A stretch of 64,000 nucleotides of DNA from Escherichia coli (GCF_003334765.1 NZ_QOWT01000004.1); one strand, 5' to 3'. Positions 1 to 45,787 are shown, counted from the first letter of the stretch. The notes: generated from the letters alone by a model not told the origin. Program-made: numbers and translations.

Positions 1-362
1 AAATCGGCTCAAACATGAAGAAATGAAATGACTGAGTCAGCCGAGAAGTATTTCCCCGCTTATTCGCACCTTCCTTAACTATCCCCCTCTGGAAATACGA
101 CTTGTGAGCATAAGATAAATCTTATGCAAAATACAAATTAAAGATAAGGAAATTGTTACGAAAGCTATTAATTATTGTTGGTAATATAGTTTCAAGTGGT
201 ACTATAACTGGCTGTTAAATGGCATTTATAACTATTAGGTGCAGAGATATTCGCTTAAATGGATTAGTTTCTTTGTGGAAAAGTAACTGATGTTATAATG
301 TATGATGTTGACTATTGCACTATTCCAATAAAACCAGTCAGCTTTAAACAAGCAGCGTCATA

Positions 363-575
363 TTAAGAGAGATAAACATTTGCCGCTGTTGGTCCTCGCA
401 GGCCATTTACGCGGCAAAATTCCACACGTAATCCTGGTATAAGCACTTCTGCGTCGCGGGGAGTGAATGCGGAAATATGGACCTGAACTTCTTTACGACC
501 GTCGGAGGGGATAATGAATCCTTTGCCGCTTTTGCGATCAAAGGTTTTGACAATTCCTGTCATTTTACGGGACAA
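363..575 (-). CDS. cspH: Cold-shock-domain protein CspH (70 aa)
   Basis: 70-aa ORF with CspA-family pattern (KGFGFI-like RNP motif), characteristic length, position next to cspG. Confidence 0.9.
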
Positions 576-30755: not shown

Positions 30756-31586
30756 ATGTTTGTTCCGTTTCTCATTATGTTGCGCGAAGGACTTGAAGCC
30801 GCGCTGATTGTCAGTTTGATTGCCAGCTATCTTAAGCGTACCCAGCGAGGCCGATGGATTGGTGTGATGTGGATTGGCGTGTTGCTTGCCGCTGCGTTGT
30901 GCCTGGGCTTGGGTATCTTCATTAACGAAACCACCGGCGAATTTCCGCAAAAAGAACAGGAACTGTTTGAAGGTATCGTGGCGGTGATCGCCGTGGTGAT
31001 CCTTACCTGGATGGTTTTCTGGATGCGCAAAGTGTCGCGCAACGTCAAAGTGCAACTGGAACAGGCAGTCGATAGCGCATTGCAGCGTGGAAATCATCAT
31101 GGCTGGGCGCTGGTGATGATGGTCTTTTTTGCCGTTGCAAGGGAAGGGCTGGAGTCGGTCTTTTTCCTGCTGGCGGCATTTCAACAAGATGTCGGGATCT
31201 GGCCGCCGCTGGGTGCAATGCTCGGTCTTGCTACTGCCGTGGTGCTAGGCTTCCTGCTCTACTGGGGCGGTATTCGCCTCAATCTTGGTGCATTTTTTAA
31301 ATGGACCAGCCTGTTTATTCTCTTCGTCGCCGCAGGGCTGGCAGCTGGTGCCATTCGCGCATTTCATGAAGCCGGATTGTGGAACCACTTTCAGGAAATC
31401 GCCTTCGATATGAGTGCGGTGCTCTCAACTCACTCGCTGTTTGGCACGCTGATGGAAGGGATTTTTGGCTATCAGGAAGCGCCGAGCGTCAGCGAAGTCG
31501 CCGTCTGGTTTATTTATCTCATCCCGGCGCTGGTGGCATTTGCTCTGCCACCACGCGCAGGGGCGACAGCGTCTCGCTCCGCGTAA
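30756..31586 (+). CDS. efeU: Ferrous iron permease EfeU (FTR1 family), apparently intact
   Basis: Uninterrupted 276-codon frame from MFVPFLIMLREGLEAALIV with two REGLE motifs (REGLEAA, REGLESV) and multiple TM segments. Confidence 0.9.
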   Translation: MFVPFLIMLREGLEAALIVSLIASYLKRTQRGRWIGVMWIGVLLAAALCLGLGIFINETTGEFPQKEQELFEGIVAVIAVVILTWMVFWMRKVSRNVKVQLEQAVDSALQRGNHHGWALVMMVFFAVAREGLESVFFLLAAFQQDVGIWPPLGAMLGLATAVVLGFLLYWGGIRLNLGAFFKWTSLFILFVAAGLAAGAIRAFHEAGLWNHFQEIAFDMSAVLSTHSLFGTLMEGIFGYQEAPSVSEVAVWFIYLIPALVAFALPPRAGATASRSA

Positions 31587-34392: not shown

Positions 34393-35457
34393 ATGGTAAC
34401 GTCCTGTACTGGACATGTTTTAGATAATCAACGCGCCACCACTCGCGGAGTTTTCTCCTCCGGTAGTCATCTCGTCACTTTGCATTTTCAACCTCATCCT
34501 TTCTTTTCATGTGTTACCGACGCCGTAAACGGTGCGCGTAGCCGTTTTTCGGCATTTTATCCAAAAGCAAACTATGGCTTACAAGGAAGCCAACCCTCTG
34601 ATGTTCGTGCGCATAATCGCGCTGCCAACGGCGCGTGTGATGAATACAAACAACTCAAGGTGCTCTCCATGGGAAGACAAAAAGCAGTGATCAAAGCTCG
34701 TCGCGAGGCAAAACGTGTGCTGAGACGGGATTCGCGCAGCCATAAGCAGCGTGAAGAAGAATCGGTCACCTCGCTTGTGCAGATGGGCGGCGTAGAAGCC
34801 ATTGGTATGGCCCGCGACAGTCGCGATACTTCGCCCATCCTCGCGCGAAATGAAGCGCAATTGCACTATCTGAAGGCTATTGAGAGTAAGCAGCTGATAT
34901 TCGCCACGGGCGAAGCCGGGTGCGGAAAAACCTGGATCAGCGCAGCAAAAGCGGCAGAGGCCCTGATACATAAGGATGTCGACAGGATTATCGTCACCCG
35001 TCCAGTTCTGCAAGCCGATGAAGATCTTGGCTTCTTACCTGGAGATATCGCAGAAAAGTTTGCTCCCTATTTTCGCCCGGTCTACGACGTGCTGGTCCGG
35101 CGCTTAGGGGCTTCCTTTATGCAGTACTGCCTGCGACCGGAAATAGGGAAGGTGGAAATTGCGCCGTTCGCCTATATGCGTGGACGTACCTTTGAAAATG
35201 CAGTCGTCATTCTTGACGAGGCGCAGAATGTGACTGCCGCGCAAATGAAAATGTTTTTAACCCGCCTCGGGGAGAACGTGACGGTTATCGTCAACGGTGA
35301 TATCACGCAATGCGATTTGCCTCGCGGCGTGTGCTCCGGATTAAGTGACGCGCTGGAACGTTTCGAAGAAGATGAAATGGTTGGGATCGTCCGGTTCGGT
35401 AAAGAGGACTGCGTACGTTCGGCACTTTGCCAACGTACGCTGCATGCCTACAGTTAA
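34393..35457 (+). CDS. phoH: PhoH, phosphate-starvation-inducible ATPase (PhoH family)
   Basis: 354-aa ORF with Walker A (GEAGCGKT) and PhoH-family C-terminal domain. Confidence 0.9.
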   Translation: MVTSCTGHVLDNQRATTRGVFSSGSHLVTLHFQPHPFFSCVTDAVNGARSRFSAFYPKANYGLQGSQPSDVRAHNRAANGACDEYKQLKVLSMGRQKAVIKARREAKRVLRRDSRSHKQREEESVTSLVQMGGVEAIGMARDSRDTSPILARNEAQLHYLKAIESKQLIFATGEAGCGKTWISAAKAAEALIHKDVDRIIVTRPVLQADEDLGFLPGDIAEKFAPYFRPVYDVLVRRLGASFMQYCLRPEIGKVEIAPFAYMRGRTFENAVVILDEAQNVTAAQMKMFLTRLGENVTVIVNGDITQCDLPRGVCSGLSDALERFEEDEMVGIVRFGKEDCVRSALCQRTLHAYS

Positions 35458-35506
35458 GTGTGTTATCGGTGCAGAGCCCGGGCGAACCGGGCTTTGTTTT
35501 GGGTGT

Positions 35507-35920
35507 TTATGCCCGGACTAGCGCTTTTTCTGAAACAACCATTTTTATTTGCCCCTGGCTGGTGAAGTGTACGCTCATCCTGTGGCTTTTTTGTAGTTGC
35601 TGATAGAGCTCATCAGGTATTGCTAAGCTCTCTGCATATTCTTGCGGCGTATATTGGTAGGCTGCATGATGCTGCTGTTTTTGAAAACGCAGCTTATTGT
35701 ACAGCGCCCAGACAATTAACACGACGGCATTCGCCACTGCCAGCAAAAAATAGAACTGAAGTCGGCTTCTGGCCTCGCTTTGCCAGTAATAACCCGTCAG
35801 CAGATCCATGGCGAATAAGAATATGAACAACGCAAATAATGTCCACAAGATGGTTGTGGCAACATAATCAACCAGTAAACGTACTGGTGATTGTCGGGTC
35901 GTAATAATTAAATTGTTCAT
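35507..35920 (-). CDS. pgaD: PgaD, PNAG synthesis accessory membrane protein
   Basis: 137-aa two-TM ORF immediately downstream of pgaC. Confidence 0.9.
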
Positions 35921-35921
35921 A

Positions 35922-37247
35922 TTAACCTCTCAGAATCCCGCGATCGGGACTTACCCAACGGGCGCGTTGCTTTTTAGGCATCAACATGACTCGTGTAAAT
36001 GATACCAATGTCGTTGCCAGGCTCAGCATCCAGAAAATAACCGGGAACCAAATAATCCAGAAAAGCGATGAAGTCAGATTATGCTCATAGCGATTCTCGA
36101 TCATCAGGCTGACAATAAATTGCAGTAAACATAACGTACACAATAATATTCCGGCAGTATGTGTCGCAGCGATATGTGTCAATTCAATATTTAACGGTAC
36201 ACCGGCAAGTTGGACTGCGTAAATAATGAAACCGACCAGGCAGGTGAAGGCCCATATTGTCGTCAGGCAGTATTCAAAAAACAGCGGCCACATTCGAAAG
36301 TTTTCTTTGCGCCACAACCTTGTCATATTTTTGAGGAATACTTCTGCACCGCCCTGAGCCCAGCGCAGGCGCTGTTTCCACAGCCCTTTTAACGTTTCAG
36401 GCATTAATATCCAGCACAGTGCCCGTGGCTCGTAAAAAATCGTCCACTGATTCAACTGCAGCTTCCAGCTAATATCAATATCTTCGGTGATCATATCGTC
36501 ACTCCAGTAACCCACTTCTGCCAGGGCGCTGCGACGAAATGCGGCAATAACACCGGAAACGGTAAATACGTTTCCATAGATACGCTGGGTTCGCTTGATC
36601 AAACCAATAATTGAGGAATACTCGCCAACCTGAATTTTACCCACCAGGGTAGAACGTGTTCGAATACGAGGATTACCGGTTACGGCACCCACACGCGGGT
36701 TGTACAACATCGGTTCCACAATATATGCCGCCGCATCGCGGTCTAATAACGCATCGCCATCAATGCACACCAGATATTCACTTTTCGCCGCGGCAGCTCC
36801 GGTTTTAAGCGCAATGGCTTTCCCCTGGTTTTGCGCCAGATGAATGACCCGCAAATGGGGAATTTGTGCAGCCATGCGATCCAGGATGGCACGGGTTTTA
36901 TCTGTTGAACCGTCATTTACGGCAATAACTTCAATGTTCTCATAACGCTGTGCTAAAGCGGCGTGTATGGTTTCCTCAACGTTTTTCTCCTCATTAAAAC
37001 AGGGAATGATAATGGAGATAGACGGATTATCTTTCAACTGGGGAGCTGGTGCGTTTTCTCCCCACGGCCAGTGGCGTTCACGATAGACCCAGAAATAGAC
37101 GCCGCCAACAATCCACATAATGGACATAAAAAACGGCCAGAAGAAAACGAACCTCATCATCAGTTCACCAGAGTGAAAGTACGCTACGCATAGGGGTATG
37201 CATAACACCAGACATAATATAAAAAACGATACGATGCGATTAATCAT
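35922..37247 (-). CDS. pgaC: PgaC, poly-beta-1,6-N-acetylglucosamine synthase (GT2)
   Basis: 441-aa ORF with GT2 motifs ([13 protein letters not shown]-type QxxRW). Confidence 0.95.
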
Positions 37248-39258
37248 TTTTCGGATACCAGGCTGTTGAAAACTCAGGACGAATAAGGTCTATTTCAGGT
37301 TGGTTATGCAGAAAATTGTCGGGATAATAACCATAGTTTTTCACTCCATTCAGTTGTAATAGGCTCATCCAGTGAGCGAGTTGTTGCGAAGAAATAGCCT
37401 GATGCTGACCATTTTTCTGCCAGTTTTGTGCCTGTAATTCTAAAATAGATTTGTCTTTAGCCTGAGGGATGTTTTTAATTTGATTGGTCAATTGTATTAA
37501 CCATTGGTCAGCCGATTTTTCTGCGACACCTTCCAGATAAGGCATAGCCATAATAGCGGTCCAGTCATAGCTTTTTAGGAAATCAGCATAATTCTGTGCA
37601 AACCAGGCTTCACTTTCAGGTTGTATTACCGGAAGTGCAAAAATATTTCGTGCAGTTTTAATATGTGGACCGCGAATGGCTTTTACGCGCGCACTAAGTT
37701 CTAAAGTGAAGTCAGTTAACGCACGACTTTTAAAGCGGGCCCACTGTTTAAATTGCTCCGGGTTTTGTCGAATTTCGCTCAGACTCCCGCTAAAGCCTGC
37801 TTGCTGATAAGCCGTGATAGCCGGTGCACTGGCATCTTCATAATCTGAAAGCAAAGCATCATCGTGGAACAATATGCCATCAAAAGCAGCATGTCCGGCA
37901 AGATCTTCATATAACATGCCAACTTGTGCTCTGACTCTGTCATCGAAAGGAGAGAGACGGTGATATTGTTCAGGATGAATTTGTGCTTTTTTCTCCCCTG
38001 TTGGTAAGTATTTTACTCGCGTTAATGTGGGATCTAAATCCCAGCTTAATACCGGCATCCACGCATAGATGTTTACACCTGAGCGGGTACGTAATTGCCA
38101 GGCAACCCGACTAAAAATATCTGCTTTCATTGGTAGCAAACGATTTGGAAACCAGACCTCTTTGACCAGCCCATCACCATCGGGATCAGCAAATGCCTGC
38201 AAATACACGGTTGATATTTGCATATCTTTCACCCGCTGAATTAGCACATCAATATTGCGATCCATTTGCTGGAGGTTTTCGTCATAAACGTAATCAAGAT
38301 CGATATGCATTATCCGTTGTGGTGATTTTTCCTGTACGGTAATAATTTGCTGGGCAAACTCTTTTAATGAGGGATTATTGGCGATTAATACCCGCGGAAT
38401 GGAATCCAATTGCGACGCATTTGCCAAACCTGATTCAAGGGTGAAGAACATGTCATAACCGAGTTTTTTTAATTCCTCTATCGCTATGCCATTCGCTTCG
38501 CCATAAGGCCAAACAAAAACGTGTGGATTTACCTCAACCTTTGTACGCAGGTATTCCGTCATTTTTACAGCATCCAGACGAATTCTTTCCCGGTATTCTG
38601 CTGCGGTTTCATACCGTGCGTGGTCAGTAAAATATGCACGATTTACATATACAGGCAATAAGCTGCCGGTGGCATTAGCCTGAATACCGTAGTGAGAATT
38701 CCATGTATGAGAAGCGAGCTCAACGAGCCGGGAACGCGCAACTTCTCGCACTTGTTGCCACGTGGCAAAATATTCTCGATCGACCAACTCATCGCCAAAT
38801 TTTACTTGTTTATCCGCTGGCGTATCGACCCAACTGCCGACGGGGGCCCATACAGCAGGCCACTGGAAGGCCTGAAGAATTGGGAAGACGCGGGTATAAA
38901 AACTCTGGTAGCCGTCATCAAAAGTCAGCACTACAGCTTTTTCCGGTAGCGGTTTTCCTCCTCGATGTGCTTCACGAATTTGAGCAATACTGACCGGTTG
39001 ATAACCGTTCTCGCGCAGCCAGGCAAATTGTTCACGCAGTGCTGATGTCCGCACTGACATAAAACGCTGGTCGGCAGCTTCGTCTTCAACGTTATGCCAT
39101 GAAATCGCTACAAAACCATTATGCGGCCACGGTTGCTCGGCGAGTAAAGATTCGCGATCCTGTGGCGGTATAAATGATGTTCTTGACTGGCTAATGCACG
39201 CGGTGAGCATAATTATACTCACCAGCATCAGGAGATATTTATTTCCATTACGTAACAT
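37240..39258 (-). CDS. pgaB: PgaB, PNAG N-deacetylase lipoprotein
   Basis: 672-aa ORF with lipoprotein signal (LTAC), polysaccharide deacetylase domain. Confidence 0.95.
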
Positions 39259-39266
39259 ATTTATCC

Positions 39267-41690
39267 TTAAAATCTGAATGTCATATCGAATTCAACGTAT
39301 AAGTTGTGTTCTCTGTCACCGTCATAAGGTCGTTTTTCCCAGCGTAGCGTTGCGCCAGCATCAATCACGTCATTCCAACTAATGCGTTGCCCGTAGCCGA
39401 GTTGGGTGACGACATCCGTGCCATAATGTTTTTGCCAGGAGGCACCAACACCTGCGCTGAATATTTGCTCCCAGCTATTTTCATAGCTTCGCCATAACAA
39501 ATGGCTTGCCTCAAATGCCGGAACAATATCGAACGTTTTTATAGGGTTGTAGTATGGGGTATCGTGTTCTGTATTTTGTTCGTAATACAGACTGGGTAGG
39601 AAATCGACAATCAAATATGGTGAAGACCAGATGCGTTCCTGACCCTCAAGTGAGACTTCATGACGCTGGTTACTGTCGGAAAAATCAGTGAAAGCCCAGG
39701 AGACACCGTACTTACGCCGCTCATTTTGATACCAGCGAACATAAGCCTGAGCACTGTTGCCTGTAACACCATTTTTCATTGCCCGTAATGGAACGCGGTG
39801 AGAGAGGCGTTCCAGTTGCGAACCAATACGCCAGTTATCATTAAAATCATACCAGCCAGACAGGCGCGCGCCGGGTTTATGCTCATGATTGAAAACGCGT
39901 TCAGCGTACTCTGCCTCGAGCCAGATATTACGTGACCGCCACTCAACACCCGCAAGCCAGTCGCGAACAATCCCTTTTCCTTCGCTAAATTGTCCATCGG
40001 CATAACCGAATCCAGCAAAACCGCGCCAGTTATCCTTCAGCGGTGGTGAATAAACGATGGTGGTTAAGTCGACATCATGTTTACCACTATCCGGGCCTTC
40101 GGCATCAATTCCTGTTGAGCCAGCGATACGAAGCTCTGCAAGATTATGTACATCAACCGCACGTTTTAATCGTACAACGCCGGGATCTTGCGGTTCACGT
40201 TCGACAACATCGTGCGTTAAGACAGCTGCCTGCTGCCATTCTTGTAACGTTAATGCTGTCCAGGCTTGTTCAACCTCCAGATTAATATTACGTGGCTCGA
40301 TCACTTCTGCTTTTTTTAATTCATTTTCTGCTGCACGAGGCCAACCGCGGGCTTGTAACACACTCGCGTAATCAATGCGCAGTCCCTGATTTCCTGGTGC
40401 GTTATAAGCAAGCTCTCTGGCTGTCATTTCAGCCTGAGGAAGATCATTACTATATTTTGCTACGGTTGAGAGAAACGAATGCCCCTGTAACCAGGTATCA
40501 TTCGGGATGCTCGTAGGCGTGCCCATTAACCGAAGGAAAGGCGGCGAAGTATTAATGGTATGTTGGGTGACAGTTAGCGCGCCCGGATAATTTTCACTCT
40601 CCAGGTGGCTGTAAAAGAGATCCGCAAGTTCTTCATCGGATAAATCCGGGGCAATGGTCTCCTTGTGATAAAAGAGCTCGGTCATTATTGACTGTGCTTT
40701 TTTCGGCTGATGATCTTTGAGATAAGCCGATGCAACCCAATATTGCCCCCAGGGCGGAATAATTTGCCCCGTCTTTTTTAATCGCTGATAGTGAGAAATA
40801 ACGTCTTTATAACGATCGCGAGTTAATAACGCGCCAAGATGATCAACCTGAATACGCTGGTACTGGGCAGTGCGGTCTGGGTTATCGTGCCACAGAATTT
40901 CTAATGCAGCGTATTGGGCGAGGGCGCGATCGGCAATGGCATAACGTTCACTTTCACTGCGCGTAGGCATAAACGACAGTCTGACCAGTTCGGCATGAAT
41001 ATCAGCGCGAATATCTGGCGTTAAATTGGCATCGTCAATCGCGGCAGCAAGTTGATTATTACGTAATGCCTGCACGTATTCTGTGGGATATTGTTGCGTA
41101 GATGCATTTTCAGGTAATGACTCTGTCATCGCCCGTAATTCATCCTGATGACGCCCCGCCAGTTTATAGATATAGGCTTCTGCGAGTAAATTGGCTTTGT
41201 CCGGTGCTCCAGAGTTAAGCTGCTTAAGTTTAACCAGCGCAGTATCATAGTGACCAGCATCTGCCAGGGTTAAAATTTGTCCCCGTTGATAATCCTTATT
41301 TTGCGGCTCCAGAGAGAGCGCCTTTTGCCACAGTGTAAGCGAGTTTTGCCATTGTTGCAGGTTACGATAAGCGACGGCGACAGCTGCATAACCACGCGCT
41401 GGTAATTGCTGATGACGGTAGCGGTTGTAAACGGTAATAACCTGTTTATCTTGCCCGGCCCATAAGGCAATCTGTAACCAGTCAGCAATTTGGTTATTGC
41501 TGAGTGCTGATTTTAGTGCAAACCATGACAAAGCTGGCTGAGTATTACCCTTGCGAGCTTCAATAATCAATGCATCATAGGCGTTATTAACAGCACTCTT
41601 CGCCGCGGGACTCGCTGCTAAAAATGCGGCAGTAAGAAGTTTCAAAGCCCATTTGGTTTTCGGGCACCTTTTTCTGCTACTTGAATACAT
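39267..41690 (-). CDS. pgaA: PgaA, outer membrane PNAG export porin with TPR domain
   Basis: 807-aa ORF, N-terminal TPR-like repeats and C-terminal beta-barrel ending in aromatic residue (RF). Confidence 0.95.
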   Translation of the reverse strand: MYSSSRKRCPKTKWALKLLTAAFLAASPAAKSAVNNAYDALIIEARKGNTQPALSWFALKSALSNNQIADWLQIALWAGQDKQVITVYNRYRHQQLPARGYAAVAVAYRNLQQWQNSLTLWQKALSLEPQNKDYQRGQILTLADAGHYDTALVKLKQLNSGAPDKANLLAEAYIYKLAGRHQDELRAMTESLPENASTQQYPTEYVQALRNNQLAAAIDDANLTPDIRADIHAELVRLSFMPTRSESERYAIADRALAQYAALEILWHDNPDRTAQYQRIQVDHLGALLTRDRYKDVISHYQRLKKTGQIIPPWGQYWVASAYLKDHQPKKAQSIMTELFYHKETIAPDLSDEELADLFYSHLESENYPGALTVTQHTINTSPPFLRLMGTPTSIPNDTWLQGHSFLSTVAKYSNDLPQAEMTARELAYNAPGNQGLRIDYASVLQARGWPRAAENELKKAEVIEPRNINLEVEQAWTALTLQEWQQAAVLTHDVVEREPQDPGVVRLKRAVDVHNLAELRIAGSTGIDAEGPDSGKHDVDLTTIVYSPPLKDNWRGFAGFGYADGQFSEGKGIVRDWLAGVEWRSRNIWLEAEYAERVFNHEHKPGARLSGWYDFNDNWRIGSQLERLSHRVPLRAMKNGVTGNSAQAYVRWYQNERRKYGVSWAFTDFSDSNQRHEVSLEGQERIWSSPYLIVDFLPSLYYEQNTEHDTPYYNPIKTFDIVPAFEASHLLWRSYENSWEQIFSAGVGASWQKHYGTDVVTQLGYGQRISWNDVIDAGATLRWEKRPYDGDREHNLYVEFDMTFRF

Positions 41691-41924
41691 CCTGTATTAC
41701 TCCATGTATTGCCAAAATCTCTCTCTGTATCTAATTACAGGTAACTGAAAAGAAAGATATTTTTGCACCTCATAATCCGTTATTAAACGCGGAAGAGAGA
41801 CGTGAATTGTTGATGATGAGAAGAAGAAATGATGAGCAGAGTGTCCATATAAAATCCTTTTCTCGCCCGAAAATCCATTCCAATGATGAGGATCTTCAGG
41901 AATACGGCATAAATCCCAATGCCT
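41691..41924 (-). promoter_or_regulatory. pgaA 5' leader with multiple GGA motifs (CsrA binding sites)
   Basis: At least five to six GGA motifs on the mRNA strand including one overlapping the SD (caGGAtg context). Confidence 0.7.
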
Positions 41925-42276
41925 TTTTCAAAATAAATTAGGATTAAAATAATTAAATCAGTAAATTCCGATGCATGATTTCGGATTTTTCGAAAGTCCT
42001 GATGAAAGGCTGCGCTACGGCACTCACGGATTTAATTGTTATTCCTAATGTATCTATGAATTAATGTTTTATAAGGATTTTCTATAACCATTTATAAGTA
42101 TTTTCAAGCCTGGCTTGTTGCAAACAATGTATAAAGCACTTAGGCAATAATAATTACATTCAGCAACTATCATCATCGGTATTGTTTGTGGGCGGAATTT
42201 CATATTGACAACAGTACAGTTCTTATATCTATTAATAATAGAAAGGGATCTACAACCTACAGATTGGTGTAGCTTT

Positions 42277-43635
42277 ATGGAAAAAGACTATTTGAGAATG
42301 AGTAGTACTGTATTAGTGAGCTTATTGTTTGGGCTTGCTTTGGTTTTGGTGAATAGTTGGTTTAATCAGCCAGGCGTTGAGGAAGTTGTTCCACGATCAA
42401 CCTATCTGATGGTAATGATTGCTTTATTTTTTATCGATACTGTTGCATTTATTTTTATGCAGTTGTATTTCATTTATGACCGTAGGCAATTTTCAAACTG
42501 TGTACTTAGTTTGGCTTTTCTGAGTTGTTTGATTTACTTTGTTATAACCGTCATTATCATTCAGCAAATTATTGAGGAGCGTTTGACAAGCAGTGTTGTC
42601 CAAAATGACATTGCAATCTATTATTTGTTTCGTCAGATGAGTTTGTGCATATTAATATTTCTGGCATTGGTGAATAAAGTTAGTGAAAACACAAAACAGC
42701 GCAATTTATTTTCCAAAAAAATGACTTTGTGCATAAGTTTGTTTTTTGTTTTTGGGGGGCCGATAGTTGCTCACATACTTTCTAGTCATTATGAGAGCTA
42801 CAATTTACACATTGCCGAGTTAACCAATGAAAATGGTCAGGTGGTTTGGAAAGCCTCATATGTTACCATAATGATTTTCATGTGGTTAACCTTGCTTTCG
42901 GTTAATCTATACTTTAATGGTTTACGCTATGATATCTGGAATGGAGTGACGGTGATTGCTTTTTGTGCCGTACTGTACAATATCTCTCTGTTATTTATGA
43001 GCAGGTATAGCGTGTCCACTTGGTATATTAGTCGCACTATTGAAGTAGTCAGTAAGTTAACCGTTATGGTAATATTTATGTGCCATATATTCAGTGCGCT
43101 ACGAGTAACAAAGAACATTGCACATCGCGATCCCTTAACCAATATATTTAACAGAAATTATTTTTTTAATGAACTGACAGTTCAATCAGCATCAGCCCAA
43201 AAAACGCCTTATTGCGTCATGATTATGGATATCGACCACTTCAAAAAAGTCAACGACACCTGGGGGCATCCGGTTGGCGATCAGGTGATAAAAACAGTGG
43301 TGAATATCATTGGGAAAAGCATACGACCAGATGACCTTTTAGCGCGCGTCGGCGGCGAAGAGTTTGGCGTCTTGCTGACGGACATCGATACTGAACGTGC
43401 GAAAGCTTTAGCGGAAAGGATTCGGGAAAATGTTGAGCGTTTAACTGGCGATAATCCTGAATACGCTATACCACAAAAAGTGACGATTAGTATTGGCGCT
43501 GTTGTGACTCAGGAAAATGCGTTAAACCCAAATGAGATCTATCGACTGGCTGATAACGCACTTTACGAGGCGAAAGAGACCGGGCGTAATAAGGTGGTTG
43601 TGAGGGATGTGGTGAATTTTTGTGAGTCACCATAA
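42277..43635 (+). CDS. dgcT: Diguanylate cyclase DgcT/YcdT (MASE4 membrane domain + GGDEF)
   Basis: 452-aa frame from MEKDYLRMSSTVLV; N-terminal polytopic membrane domain, C-terminal GGDEF domain with RVGGEEFG active-site motif. Confidence 0.95.
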   Translation: MEKDYLRMSSTVLVSLLFGLALVLVNSWFNQPGVEEVVPRSTYLMVMIALFFIDTVAFIFMQLYFIYDRRQFSNCVLSLAFLSCLIYFVITVIIIQQIIEERLTSSVVQNDIAIYYLFRQMSLCILIFLALVNKVSENTKQRNLFSKKMTLCISLFFVFGGPIVAHILSSHYESYNLHIAELTNENGQVVWKASYVTIMIFMWLTLLSVNLYFNGLRYDIWNGVTVIAFCAVLYNISLLFMSRYSVSTWYISRTIEVVSKLTVMVIFMCHIFSALRVTKNIAHRDPLTNIFNRNYFFNELTVQSASAQKTPYCVMIMDIDHFKKVNDTWGHPVGDQVIKTVVNIIGKSIRPDDLLARVGGEEFGVLLTDIDTERAKALAERIRENVERLTGDNPEYAIPQKVTISIGAVVTQENALNPNEIYRLADNALYEAKETGRNKVVVRDVVNFCESP

Positions 43636-43981
43636 AGCGGCCTGGCACACGCGTTTGATGGAAGACGGCGTTCAGGCAATGCGCGATTATCTTGCCGGAC
43701 TGGATATCGCTTCGCCAGAGCATCAGGTTCTGATGAACGTAACAGCAAAAAGCGAGGTCGCTCCGTCAATTATCAAAGAAAATCTCTCATTACACTTAAC
43801 TCATACGGTGAAATGGACTGAATCTCTCGATACATTTCTGAATATGCCAACCCCGGTAGCTTTCCTTGAAATAAGTAATAAGCCCTATTTGGGGAATATG
43901 TTAAATGATTTTGCTGGCGTGGATCAGCAACGAGTTATGCATTGTCGTAAAGCATTTAGTGATGCAAAGGTATTCAAATGA
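43622..43981 (+). pseudogene. ymdE: ymdE, C-terminal fragment of a FabD-like malonyl-CoA:ACP transacylase
   Basis: 119-aa ORF alignable by eye to the C-terminal third of FabD (VKW/QWT, LEI/YEV segments) but lacking the N-terminal GHSxG catalytic region; overlaps ycdT 3' end and ycdU start. Confidence 0.6.
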
Positions 43982-44964
43982 TTCCTGATTATTTAACTTT
44001 TATTCGCTTTCAGGATAAACGAAATCTGATATACATTTATGCTATTGGACTTATTCTGATAGGCTTTTATTGGAAGAATGCAGGGTTTACTTTTCCATCA
44101 GAGGATATTGGTGTAGTTAGTGGGATTCTGGCTCTGGTGCTGTATAATTTTATTTTTGATCTCAAGGCGTACTGGGCTTATAAATGCGTCACGAAGAATA
44201 TCGATTTTTCGTGGTTTAAGAAAAAGCAGAACCACAAAATAGAATTATTTCTTACACAACCTCTGGTGGCAGGATTTCTGTCGTTAATCATGTTGAGTGC
44301 AATGAGTTGGGGGCTATACCAGCTTCTACCCTCGTTATATGCGCTGTTCCTGATTTCGTTACTTGGGCCGTTGGTCATCTTTCTGCTGTTTCGGATGATC
44401 CGCACCAGTTATGTCAAGCAGGTCGCTATTTCAGTAGCGAAAAAAGTAAAATATAAAAGTCTGACTCGCTATGTGCTGCTTTCGGTGTGCATCTCAACGG
44501 TTGTTAACCTGCTTACTATCAGCCCGTTGCGTAACAGTGATTCTTTTGTGACAGAGGGGCAGTGGTTAACGTTTAAATCGATAATTGCATTGCTCATTCT
44601 TTGTGGCGTAGTGTTGGCGATTAATCTGTTTTTTCTGCGCTTCTCCAAGCGGTACGCTTTTCTGGGCAGGCTTTTTTTGCAGGAAATCGATCTGTTTTTC
44701 TCCAGTGAAAATGCGTTGTCGACCTTTTTTGCCAAGCCGCTTTGGCTTCGGTTATTCATATTGCTGGTTATTGAAGTGATGTGGATTACGCTGGTGTCGG
44801 TATTGGCAACGCTTGTAGAATGGCGGATTTGGTTTGAAGCCTATTTTTTACTCTGCTATGTACCGTGCTTAATTTACTATTTTTTCTATTGTCGATTCCT
44901 CTGGCATAACGATTTTATGATGGCATGTGACATGTATTTCCGTTGGGGGCATTTTAATAAGTGA
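43978..44964 (+). CDS. ycdU: Uncharacterised inner membrane protein YcdU
   Basis: 328-aa AT-rich ORF with about 8 predicted TM segments. Confidence 0.85.
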
Positions 44965-45098
44965 GGAAGTGATAGGAAGTGACCAGATAATACATATATG
45001 TTCTGTACTCTCTTGCGCATTTTGATTGTTGACTGAGTAACCAGACAGTTGATGTGCACGATTTCCCCTCGCCCTAACAGACGTGGGCGGGGGCACCC

Positions 45099-45719
45099 GG
45101 TGTGTGCAATATACGAAAAAAAAGCCCGTACTTTCGTACGAGCTCTTCTTTAAATATGGCGGTGAGGGGGGGATTGACTCGCTTCGCTCGCCCTGCGGGC
45201 AGCCCGCTCACTGCGTTCACGGTCTGTCCAACTGGCTGTCGCCAGTTGTCGAACCCCGGTCGGGGCTTCTCATCCCCCCGGTGTGTGCAATATACGAAAA
45301 AAAAGCCCGTACTTTCGTACGAGCTCTTCTTTAAATATGGCGGTGAGGGGGGGATTGACTCGCTTCGCTCGCCCTGCGGGCAGCCCGCTCACTGCGTTCA
45401 CGGTCTGTCCAACTGGCTGTCGCCAGTTGTCGAACCCCGGTCGGGGCTTCTCATCCCCCCGGTGTGTGCAATATACGAAAAAAAAGCCCGTACTTTCGTA
45501 CGAGCTCTTCTTTAAATATGGCGGTGAGGGGGGGATTGACTCGCTTCGCTCGCCCTGCGGGCAGCCCGCTCACTGCGTTCACGGTCTGTCCAACTGGCTG
45601 TCGCCAGTTGTCGAACCCCGGTCGGGGCTTCTCATCCCCCCGGTGTGTGCAATATACGAAAAAAAAGCCCGTACTTTCGTACGAGCTCTTCTTTAAATAT
45701 GGCGGTGAGGGGGGGATTC
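45099..45719. repeat. Tandem direct repeats, 181-bp unit x 3 complete copies plus a 78-bp partial copy that continues into authentic serX
   Basis: Identical units begin at 45099, 45280, 45461, 45642; each contains a terminator hairpin plus A/T run and the 3'-terminal 19 nt of tRNA-Ser. Confidence 0.9.
45659..45686 (-). terminator. Rho-independent terminator of serX (hairpin with GAAA loop + U8)
   Basis: Minus strand reads gctcgtac-gaaa-gtacgggc followed by tttttttt immediately after the tRNA 3' end. Confidence 0.8.
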
Positions 45720-45787
45720 GAACCCCCGATACGTTGCCGTATACACACTTTCCAGGCGTGCTCCTTCAGCCACTCGGACACCTCACC
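45700..45787 (-). tRNA. serX: tRNA-Ser (anticodon GGA)
   Basis: Reverse complement gives GGTGAGGTGTCCGAGTGGCTGAAGGAGCACGCCTGGAAAGTG...GGGGGTTCGAATCCCCCCCTCACCGCCA: 88 nt, long variable arm, T-loop GTTCGAATC, CCA end. Confidence 0.95.

Follow-up and report, generated by a model that had tools for sequence, protein, structure and literature searches.

Introduction

The pgaABCD genes make, deacetylate and export the biofilm polysaccharide PNAG. They lie in a part of the Escherichia coli chromosome for which an AT-rich accessory pga-ycdU island, O-island 47 (OI-47) of O157:H7 and H-NS binding in the region are already published. The pgaD-ycdU "genome island" was described in phylogroup A E. coli by Goldstone et al. 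(2016, PMC4951805), where ymdE and ycdU were reported as core in mastitis isolates, with little mutational decay, and where ycdT (dgcT) was co-regulated with pga, yet had a function unconnected to pga expression. OI-47 has a published size of 31,727 bp, and the tRNA gene serX is a documented integration site of other islands (OI-48/SpLE1; PMC3064760).

The expression of pgaABCD is mainly controlled after transcription start by CsrA and Rho, the CsrA/Rho-controlled pgaA leader mapping to the pgaA-dgcT region (PMC12360218), and NhaR is a further published regulator. The published H-NS evidence was obtained in K-12; it covers ycdU and the dgcT 3' junction and does not extend to pga (PMC4390576, PMC10294691). 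More specifically, the dgcT/IS3 (dgcT/insEF) junction is an H-NS-rich region with conditional repression at stationary-phase entry (PMC4390576), and a site inside ycdU is flagged as H-NS-bound, with ycdU RNA at 53 units versus 37,076 for phoH (PMC10294691).

Results

An AT-rich block that is replaced by another cassette in some strains

The window analysed here is a 64,000-nt stretch of E. coli DNA (GCF_003334765.1, NZ_QOWT01000004.1). The original prediction had described positions 35507-44964 as an AT-rich block spanning pgaABCD, ycdT, ymdE and ycdU, anciently acquired as one biofilm/c-di-GMP module and likely H-NS-silenced, and its gene names and coordinates proved correct (Table 1). The GC content of this block is 0.436, compared with 0.508 outside it and 0.497 for the window as a whole. 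When all 9458-bp segments were scored in steps of 100 bp, the lowest value (0.435) was found at a start of 35601, so that the block is the lowest-GC stretch of the window for its size. Both edges are abrupt, GC passing from 0.536 (35251-35500) to 0.464 (35501-35750) on the left and from 0.380 (44751-45000) to 0.548 (45001-45250) on the right. The seven block genes were compared with the 51 other genes of the window by Mann-Whitney tests, showing lower GC (0.436 vs 0.503, p=0.003), lower GC3 (0.444 vs 0.529, p=0.011), a lower codon adaptation index (CAI; 0.231 vs 0.308, p=0.001, with Sharp-Li weights) and more rare codons (5.0% vs 3.1%, p=0.016). The predicted AT-richness thus held in the sliding-window GC as well as in codon usage. 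Inside the block GC is uneven, with 0.44-0.47 in the pga genes, 0.34 in the pgaA-dgcT intergenic region, 0.386 in dgcT and 0.405 in ycdU. The window also has AT-rich patches outside the block, at yccE (0.34 GC) and in the csgD-csgB region (0.35 GC).

The block is strain-variable. In strain 7_33_80A, homology to the window ends at 35500 and restarts at 45096, with a 1232-bp DUF2726 cassette in between. Among 5426 complete E. coli genomes, 4382 are positive for pgaC; in 1052 the DUF2726 cassette (~1.2 kb) takes the place of the block, which is missing from about 19% of the 5426 with break points exactly at its edges. As in a genomic island, atypical composition and codon usage go together with a presence/absence polymorphism with defined break points (35500/35501 and 45095/45096), and the block is compositionally atypical accessory DNA, as had been proposed. 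No integrase ORF was found within 35.5-45.1 kb, a repeat search around the block returned no att-like or flanking direct repeats, and PADLOC gave no match on the DUF2726 cassette. On the right, serX lies 605 bp past the edge (45095), after a tandem repeat array matching Rfam RF00391 (45157-45293, 45338-45474 and 45519-45655) whose copy number differs among strains. In O157:H7, ycdU and serX are separated by an integrase-led island.

Table 1. Positions of the block, its genes and its right border in the window.
Feature	Coordinates	Strand	Remarks
Strain-variable AT-rich block	35501..45095	.	Between phoH and the serX repeat array; GC 0.436
pgaDCBA operon (PNAG synthesis, deacetylation, export)	35507..41690	-	Four intact ORFs in operon order
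pgaD	35507-35920	-	NF011180, 295.6 bits vs cut-off 191
pgaC	35922-37247	-	Intact ORF
pgaB	37240-39258	-	Intact ORF
pgaA	39267-41690	-	Intact ORF
Divergent pgaA-dgcT control region	41691..42276	.	GC 0.34; most AT-rich part of the block
dgcT (ycdT), membrane-anchored diguanylate cyclase	42277..43635	+	TIGR00254, GGEEF, RxxD; GC 0.386
ymdE' pseudogene remnant, C-terminal third of FabD-like malonyl-CoA:ACP transacylase gene	~43625..43981	+	
Putative deletion scar	43640..43641	.	O157:H7 has 31,748 bp (OI-47) between these bases; K-12 has IS3
ycdU, intact 328-aa eight-helix inner-membrane protein	43978..44964	+	Last gene of the putatively deleted lipid cluster; GC 0.405
Published intragenic PhoB ChIP-seq site in ycdU	44536..44553	-	PMC10294691 Table 1; H-NS-bound DNA
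Three exact 181-bp tandem RtT-like repeats	45096..45718	-	3' of serX; right border of the variable block
serX tRNA-Ser(GGA)	45700..45787	-	ARAGORN and Rfam tRNA

The pga operon and dgcT differ in composition

The predicted PNAG operon is present with all four genes intact, its DNA being 99.98-100% identical to RefSeq records annotated pgaA-D. Compared with O157:H7, the pga tract shows about 7 differences in 7 kb (~0.1%) and its flanks show 1-4% divergence, suggesting that this pga allele spread recently; the divergence of the pga tract is ten-fold lower than that of ycdU. This difference is a warning against reading AT-richness as one old acquisition. Of the proposed ancient acquisition, the accessory origin stands, while a single old event is too simple.

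The predicted GGDEF cyclase is DgcT, whose domain scores 156.9 bits against TIGR00254 (cut-off 37.4) and which has a GGEEF active site with an upstream RPDD (RxxD) I-site (motif RPDDLLARVGGEEF). In O157:H7, dgcT is followed on its 3' side by vmpA (GC 0.367), a hypothetical gene (0.335) and grvA (0.337), which are equally AT-rich. As GC is 0.34-0.39 in dgcT, vmpA and grvA versus 0.44-0.47 in pga, the control region (34% GC) and dgcT would group by composition with the AT-rich regulatory genes vmpA and grvA.

ymdE'-ycdU is the putative tail of the OI-47 lipid cluster

The gene order in O157:H7 is phoH-pgaDCBA-dgcT-vmpA-grvA-fimbriae-TpsA/TpsB-acpS-KR-DH-ACP-GcvT-like-KS-KS-KS-hyp-ABC-hyp-FtsX-LolA-like-hyp462-FabD(ymdE, 942 nt)-ycdU-integrase. 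It contains an intact lipid cluster of about 15 kb for fatty-acid/polyketide-like synthesis and export, of which the window retains the last 1.3 kb (ymdE'-ycdU); acpS, KR, DH, ACP, GcvT-like, KS-KS, KS, ABC/FtsX, LolA-like and barrel-like genes are all absent from the window. At least 80% of the FtsX-to-FabD segment is retained in 384 of the 5426 complete genomes. Pfam and NCBIfam searches with the 317-, 218- and 462-aa hypothetical proteins of OI-47 gave no match.

The 31,748 bp found in O157:H7 at 43640/43641 agree with the published size of OI-47. The scar starts 5 nt past the dgcT stop codon, its other end falls inside the FabD-like ymdE, and the window is without the IS3 that marks this position in K-12. 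A K-12 origin of the window with a masked IS3 was considered and rejected, since efeU, which is frameshifted in K-12, is intact in the window. At least two independent deletion types can be distinguished, one flanked by IS3 and retaining CATTT of OI-47, the others with IS-less junctions at GCGG/AGCGG microhomology. What remains of the FabD-like gene is its 3' 341-357 nt: ymdE' aligns with the last ~113 of the 313 residues in the O157:H7 protein and thus lacks the GHSVGE active-site region, its match to the 290-position fabD profile is confined to positions 196-264, and RefSeq annotates it as incomplete, with the N-terminus missing. The truncated ymdE, together with the conserved FabD-YcdU pairing described below, argues for a deletion here, not an insertion in O157:H7.

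YcdU belongs to a tiny family that is paired with FabD-like genes

The AF2 model of YcdU has a pLDDT of 89.4. Its gene overlaps ymdE' by ATGA, as in the intact clusters. In nine lineages (Kosakonia, K. aerogenes, Mixta, three Enterobacterales-like contigs, O157:H7 and two relatives at ~20% identity), the gene encoding the YcdU relative is always the last one and immediately follows an intact FabD-like gene; the literature searched did not report this conserved link. The family has 70 representatives among 1.84 billion proteins. As predicted, YcdU is without a recognisable motif, since Pfam and NCBIfam searches with YcdU and 44 family members returned only a spurious 25-residue PSII_Ycf12 match. 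When the ~20%-identity relatives were included in the alignment, only M1, N34, Y68, P183 and G230 were invariant; no catalytic-type residues are conserved family-wide, and YcdU is therefore probably not an enzyme. An acyltransferase-type role was considered and rejected, as His310, Asp318 and Cys317 of the close relatives are not conserved in the ~20%-identity ones. The databases hold thousands of identical copies of ycdU.

AT-rich tracts, H-NS and transcription signals

Three tracts of the block have an AT content of at least 65%. They account for 33% of all such DNA in the window, of whose length the block takes up 15%. The very AT-rich tracts include 41.76-43.25 kb and 43.84-44.18 kb. The tract 41761-42880 (AT at least 65%) covers the pgaA-dgcT control region, which would be the likeliest place of H-NS nucleation. 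The density of H-NS motifs is 1.69/kb in the block versus 0.92/kb elsewhere, a weak difference that is not relied on here. The published PhoB site TGTCACAAAAGAATCACT (PMC10294691 Table 1) occurs exactly once in the window. Between 41.5 and 46.1 kb, a promoter consensus scan found 12 sites with 10.2 expected, near chance, and 11 terminator-like sites were found versus 4.6 in shuffles, four of them being one motif of the RtT array. The published binding at the dgcT 3' junction and ycdU would in part support the idea that the block is H-NS-silenced, but the repression described at the junction is conditional and falls short of full silencing. The literature searched held no expression values of pgaA, dgcT or ycdU from a delta-hns strain.

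Discussion

We conclude that the block is probably the remnant of a ~41-kb accessory region, a mosaic of three parts in which ycdU has been orphaned from a deleted lipid cluster. A strain-variable region of ~41 kb would fill the phoH-serX slot in E. coli, of which only a remnant would be left here, made of three apparently unrelated parts: pgaABCD, the control region with dgcT, and ymdE'-ycdU. A 31.7-kb deletion would have removed the rest of the lipid cluster plus fimbrial and two-partner-secretion genes. As the tail of that cluster, ymdE'-ycdU places ycdU outside the PNAG/c-di-GMP system, as an orphaned membrane component. From gene context, YcdU of intact clusters may be an inner-membrane partner of the FabD-like/ACP machinery, or may pass the product to the ABC/FtsX exporter. 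H-NS on the AT-rich tracts, according to the published K-12 ChIP data, may keep expression from dgcT to ycdU low.

The same composition could reflect function in a native region (hydrophobic membrane proteins, AT-rich leaders, low expression) and not foreign origin. This would suit ycdU, whose GC3 of 0.48 stands against a non-block mean of 0.529 and whose AT-richness, located mainly at codon positions 1 and 2 (GC1 0.416, GC2 0.319), largely reflects a hydrophobic protein; the lowest-GC segment is, moreover, the intergenic control region, and equal AT-richness is seen in other native loci of the window (the csg genes, for instance). As an account of the block we find it improbable, because pgaB, pgaA and dgcT have low GC3 (0.39-0.42) together with low CAI, the block is absent from roughly a fifth of genomes with precise break points, the lipid cluster adjoins conjugation genes in one lineage, and a database name puts one homologue on an Enterobacter plasmid. 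It is still harder to believe that the whole block, ymdE and ycdU included, is one ancient biofilm/c-di-GMP module with ycdU as a PNAG or c-di-GMP accessory. The genes are indeed adjacent, all AT-rich, and come and go as one in the pga-versus-DUF2726 polymorphism, and in this IS3-less strain ycdU lies directly 3' of dgcT, without a convincing terminator in between (the scan of 41.5-46.1 kb found no + strand terminator-like site between the dgcT stop and ycdU). However, in each of the other lineages examined a lipid cluster without pga or GGDEF partner carries ycdU right behind a FabD-like gene, 31.7 kb separate dgcT from ycdU in O157:H7, and the pga tract and ycdU differ ten-fold in their divergence from that strain. 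The single module of the original prediction is thus abandoned, ymdE'-ycdU appearing to belong to the OI-47 lipid cluster, cut at 43640/43641.

The retention of ycdU might also be explained if the gene, perhaps with ymdE', had acquired a new role unconnected with the lost cluster. Its ORF is intact, with a dN/dS of 0.11 versus O157:H7, and together with its core status in mastitis strains this suggests that ycdU may keep a function of its own and not be a passive relic; the thousands of identical copies and the little decay reported for both genes (PMC4951805) point the same way. We nevertheless hold a new function to be rather unlikely, as the window differs from CFIAFB20190157 by two synonymous and three non-synonymous changes, too few for a selection test, ycdU shows H-NS binding and hardly any transcription in MG1655 (PMC10294691), and the deletion may be too recent for visible decay.

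With the orphaned-remnant reading, K-12, where their pathway would be deleted, is not the place to study ycdU and ymdE as PNAG or c-di-GMP parts, and their proper setting is strains with intact clusters, such as O157:H7, K. aerogenes and Enterobacter. We tentatively suggest, as a possibility short of an even chance, that YcdU represents a tiny eight-helix inner-membrane family, the obligatory FabD-paired last component of an undescribed proteobacterial lipid pathway. Such a pathway would comprise a double ketosynthase, a GcvT-like protein and ABC/FtsX-LolA-like-outer-membrane export, and would be cyl-like by domain content. If so, O157:H7, Enterobacter, Kosakonia, Klebsiella aerogenes, K. oxytoca and Mixta would make a surface lipid, which might be a polyene or an amino-lipid, and K-12-like strains would keep only YcdU, perhaps for a membrane function of its own. 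The orphaned-remnant reading itself makes the y-gene ycdU a testable member of a defined, as yet uncharacterised lipid synthesis and export cluster in an O-island of a major pathogen.

Comparison with known systems

In the cyl operon of S. agalactiae, which directs the polyene lipid granadaene, six of the seven "core" domain types (Armistead et al. 2020) have counterparts in the intact OI-47-type cluster, as counted by domain type in O157:H7 and K. aerogenes: ABC ATPase, KR, ACP, DH, GcvT-like aminomethyltransferase and double KS. The OI-47-type cluster also has an ACP synthase and an ACP S-malonyltransferase. In contrast to cyl, a CylE-type acyltransferase and a glycosyltransferase were not detected in it by Pfam and NCBIfam, and its export genes encode an FtsX/MacB-type permease, a LolA-like protein and a probable outer-membrane barrel. 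When the GcvT-like protein was searched for homologues with a view to a link to CylF, the 120 matches listed were all proteobacterial relatives, and the literature searched held nothing relevant on granadaene in Gram-negatives. The comparison concerns the intact clusters; the window holds only the ymdE stump and ycdU.

The block resembles H-NS-bound xenogeneic DNA of K-12 in being AT-rich, accessory and lowly expressed, with H-NS reported at ycdU and the dgcT/IS3 junction, and differs from it in that repression at the junction is conditional and pgaABCD is mainly under CsrA, Rho and NhaR. With the serX islands OI-48/SpLE1 it has in common the serX neighbourhood, the atypical composition and the strain variability. 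Unlike them, it is without integrase or flanking direct repeats, has the RtT repeat array between itself and serX, and is swapped for an alternative cassette and not excised. The absence from 10-20% of strains reported for the island of Goldstone et al. (PMC4951805) fits the frequency found here; that study treated ymdE and ycdU as candidate mastitis fitness genes and made no link between them and the OI-47 lipid cluster or its homologues in other genera. Compared with OI-47 of O157:H7, the window lacks the 31.7 kb with vmpA, grvA, the fimbrial operon, TpsA/TpsB and most of the lipid cluster. The position is the same, the 3' flank of dgcT and ymdE'-ycdU correspond to the backbone edges of OI-47, and ycdU and the remaining ymdE are ~98.6% identical to the O157:H7 copies.

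An AT-rich accessory block between phoH and serX

The DNA between phoH and serX, which holds pgaDCBA, dgcT (ycdT), the FabD-like gene remnant ymdE' and ycdU, is AT-richer than the rest of the window, as the original prediction had claimed. GC content is 43.6% over 35507-44964 against 50.8% in the remaining window, the lowest value among all windows of that length (43.5%) starts at 35601, and both edges are abrupt, with GC passing from 0.536 to 0.464 near 35500 and from 0.380 to 0.548 near 45000. We mapped 58 annotated genes from the RefSeq records, whose annotation agrees with the predicted gene names, and compared the seven block genes with the 51 others by Mann-Whitney tests. Block genes are lower in GC (0.436 against 0.503, p=0.003), GC3 (0.444 against 0.529, p=0.011) and CAI (0.231 against 0.308, p=0.001; Sharp-Li E. 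coli weights), and use more rare codons (5.0% against 3.1%, p=0.016), so that neither GC nor CAI equals the window average. Comparably AT-rich spots occur elsewhere in the window, namely yccE (34% GC) and the csgD-csgB region (35%), and the tracts outside the block that reach 65% AT or more are as AT-rich as the block or richer.

The block is itself a compositional mosaic, since GC is 0.44-0.47 in the pga genes, 0.34 in the pgaA-dgcT intergenic region, 0.386 in dgcT, 0.437 in ymdE' and 0.405 in ycdU. GC3 is low in pgaB, pgaA and dgcT (0.39-0.42). For ycdU, the low GC sits in codon positions 1 and 2 (GC1 0.416, GC2 0.319; its GC3 is 0.48, and non-block genes average 0.529), suggesting that its AT-richness largely reflects a membrane protein rich in Phe, Ile, Leu and Lys. 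Unlike pga, dgcT resembles in GC its O157:H7 neighbours vmpA, a hypothetical gene and grvA (0.34-0.37).

In E. coli 7_33_80A, homology to the window ends at 35500 and picks up again at 45096, and the slot is occupied by a cassette of 1232 bp whose only gene is a DUF2726 gene. This cassette is also AT-rich (34-42% GC), its alleles are 90% to 100% identical, and it gave no defence-system match with PADLOC. Of 5426 complete E. coli genomes, 4382 have pgaC and 1052 have the cassette; as these counts add up to about the whole set, the slot looks like a two-state locus, judging from totals rather than from genome-by-genome overlap. The right break point is the start of the RtT-like repeats, which are followed by the tRNA-Ser gene serX; three copies are found in the window and in K-12, and one is annotated in RM10410, 5CRE51 and 7_33_80A. 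serX is a known integration site of OI-48/SpLE1 (PMC3064760). The block contains no integrase and is not flanked by direct repeats, and is therefore not a classical tRNA-integrated island. The accessory region itself is already known: pgaD-ycdU was described as a genome island with efeB/phoH on one side and ghrA on the other, missing in 10-20% of phylogroup A strains (Goldstone et al. 2016, PMC4951805).

Coordinates of features in the window and in comparison loci
Feature	Position	Strand	Remark
cspH side of window start	1-400		AT at least 65%
yccE tract	13251-14810		AT at least 65%
efeU	30756-31586		intact; frameshifted in K-12 BW25113
Ysr251 match (Rfam, Yersinia sRNA)	35259-35452	minus	189 bits, full length; antisense to the phoH 3' end and immediately left of the block
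Position of OI-47 and of the K-12 IS3	43640/43641		both absent
PhoB ChIP-seq site TGTCACAAAAGAATCACT	44536-44553	minus	inside ycdU
RtT-like array	45096-45718	minus	three identical tandem units of 181 bp, each with an Rfam RtT match; directly downstream of serX
csgD-csgB intergenic tract	51321-52120		AT at least 65%
DUF2726 cassette, 7_33_80A	L002:4502-5733
TpsA/TpsB upstream of lipid cluster, O157:H7	L018:4556-24885
TpsA/TpsB upstream of lipid cluster, Klebsiella aerogenes	L013:1-18971
ycdU cluster with conjugative-transfer genes	L006:10303-12878; L007:10522-15825

ymdE' and ycdU as the probable stump of O-island 47

The window is close to K-12 BW25113 (99.98% identity over the shared part) but distinct from it, because efeU is intact and no IS3 separates dgcT from ymdE as it does in K-12. 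At this point O157:H7 carries the 31,748-bp OI-47. The gene order, taken from strain PV15-279, starts with phoH, pgaDCBA and dgcT, and continues with an EAL gene (vmpA), a hypothetical gene, a winged-helix regulator (grvA), an SDR gene, a fimbrial operon, a filamentous-haemagglutinin-type TpsA and a ShlB-type TpsB. It then runs through acpS, an SDR ketoreductase, a FabZ-like dehydratase, an ACP, an aminomethyltransferase-family protein, an 853-aa double ketosynthase, a 407-aa ketosynthase, a 317-aa hypothetical protein, an ABC ATPase, a 218-aa hypothetical protein, an FtsX-type permease, a LolA-like protein and a 462-aa hypothetical protein, to a full-length 942-nt FabD-like gene and ycdU, before the integrase of the serX island.

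The difference could reflect an insertion in O157:H7 or a deletion in the lineage of the window. ymdE' encodes only the C-terminal third of the FabD-like protein, without the active-site region, and this missing remainder points to deletion. The junctions differ among strains, indicating that OI-47 was lost at least twice: K-12 kept five OI-47 bases (CATTT) followed by IS3, 5CRE51 is joined at an AGCGG microhomology, and CFIAFB20190157, which retains a further 183 nt of ymdE, is joined at a GCGG microhomology. The window junction equals that of K-12 minus 1266 bp; none of the 5426 complete genomes matches it at 100% over its full length, the best match being 99.9% and split into two pieces. 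The FtsX-to-FabD segment is kept at 80% or more in only 384 of these genomes, and a contiguous dgcT-ymdE' junction is present in only 26; among the rest, the examples listed have an IS3 annotated at the site.

ymdE' and ycdU thus belong to the deleted lipid cluster of OI-47 and not to the biofilm/c-di-GMP genes, among which PgaD scores above its NCBIfam cut-off and the GGDEF domain of DgcT shows GGEEF and an RxxD site. The predicted AT-rich accessory region stands, while the idea of one biofilm/c-di-GMP module does not.

An old locus and the probable recent spread of its pga allele

Compared with O157:H7, the flanking putP-phoH region usually shows 5-20 differences per 500 bp (range 0-22), the pga tract (about 34.5-42.5 kb) 0-1, except for 4 in 35.0-35.5 kb, the 3' half of dgcT 3-4, and ymdE'-ycdU 6-8. 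The pga tract is thus about 0.1% diverged and both flanks 1-4%. Consistent with this, dS is 0-0.004 for pgaA, pgaB and pgaC, 0.047 for ycdU and 0.070 for efeB, and K-12, RM10410, 5CRE51 and O157:H7 share one RefSeq PgaA protein. In other genomes the pgaC alleles are 90-99% identical. Diverse alleles together with a near-identical tract suggest a locus that is old in the species, whose present allele has spread recently between lineages, probably by recombination between phylogroups; a single ancient acquisition, as originally proposed, does not fit.

Published support for H-NS binding at dgcT-ycdU

Of the sequence in the window that reaches 65% AT or more, 33% lies in the block, which takes up 15% of the window's length. 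H-NS silencing had been predicted for all of it, and published data support H-NS binding of the dgcT-ycdU part. A reporter inserted at the scar position, between ycdT and insEF-4, lay in a site described as H-NS-rich, and its repression rose on entering stationary phase (Brambilla and Sclavi 2015, PMC4390576). The PhoB site inside ycdU is listed as within H-NS-bound DNA and is transcriptionally inert, and RNA amounts to 53 units for ycdU versus 37,076 for phoH (Fitzgerald et al. 2023, PMC10294691). For pga, nothing on H-NS binding was found in the literature searched, where its control is attributed to CsrA and Rho at the leader (PMC12360218).

ycdU follows a FabD-like gene

As predicted, YcdU is a polytopic membrane protein without recognisable motif: hydropathy gives eight membrane helices, as in the published annotation (PMC4951805), and no Pfam or NCBIfam family matches. 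Its AlphaFold model (44 homologues) is all-helical with a pLDDT of 89.4; it resembles no solved structures beyond generic helical bundles, and every AFDB match is an uncharacterised membrane protein from Proteobacteria. Members are very few: 1.84 billion proteins include 70 representatives at 50% identity, and there are 114 clusters at 90% identity, the named ones all from Enterobacterales except one record labelled Vagococcus.

All contexts examined have the ycdU homologue in last place, directly 3' of the FabD-like gene of the same cluster. These contexts comprise O157:H7, K. aerogenes, Kosakonia, Mixta, a JGI contig adjoining conjugation genes, two close relatives and two relatives at about 20% identity; one distant relative lacks the LolA-like and 462-aa genes and still has the FabD-YcdU pair. 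An ATGA start/stop overlap leads into ycdU in the window, the two closest relatives, O157:H7 and strains with truncated ymdE'. No account of this pairing across genera was found in the papers searched, and it offers a concrete route to study ycdU in strains that still carry the lipid cluster.

Across the wide family only M1, N34, Y68, P183 and G230 are invariant, which argues against a conserved catalytic site. On a positive-inside reading of the sequence, the conserved N-terminus, RRYxxxGE loop and C-terminal segment are predicted to face the cytoplasm. YcdU may be a non-enzymatic inner-membrane partner, which would anchor the FabD/ACP machinery at the membrane or else hand the product to the exporter.

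The lost lipid cluster

The synthesis half of the intact cluster is type II fatty-acid/polyketide-like (acpS, KR, DH, ACP, FabD-like and three KS domains). The export half comprises an ABC ATPase, a LolCE/MacB-like permease, a LolA-like protein with a signal peptide and the 462-aa protein, which reads as having a signal peptide and the aromatic C-terminus typical of outer-membrane barrels. The TpsA/TpsB pair lies directly upstream in both O157:H7 and Klebsiella aerogenes, and may thus be part of the same functional unit. In one lineage, genes for conjugative transfer (TraG_N, T4SS coupling protein) and for a ParE toxin come after the ycdU cluster, and a homologue lies, by database name, on an Enterobacter bugandensis plasmid, indicating that the cluster is mobile.

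Perna et al. are said to have listed OI-47 in 2001 as an adhesin plus a polyketide or fatty-acid biosynthesis system; no paper on the cluster's product was found in the literature searched. A CylE-type acyltransferase was not found in the OI-47-type cluster. Its GcvT-like protein and double ketosynthase recall the streptococcal cyl operon, and by domain content it has counterparts for six of the seven core types of cyl gene given by Armistead et al. 2020, a likeness that we regard as a lead and not as a classification.
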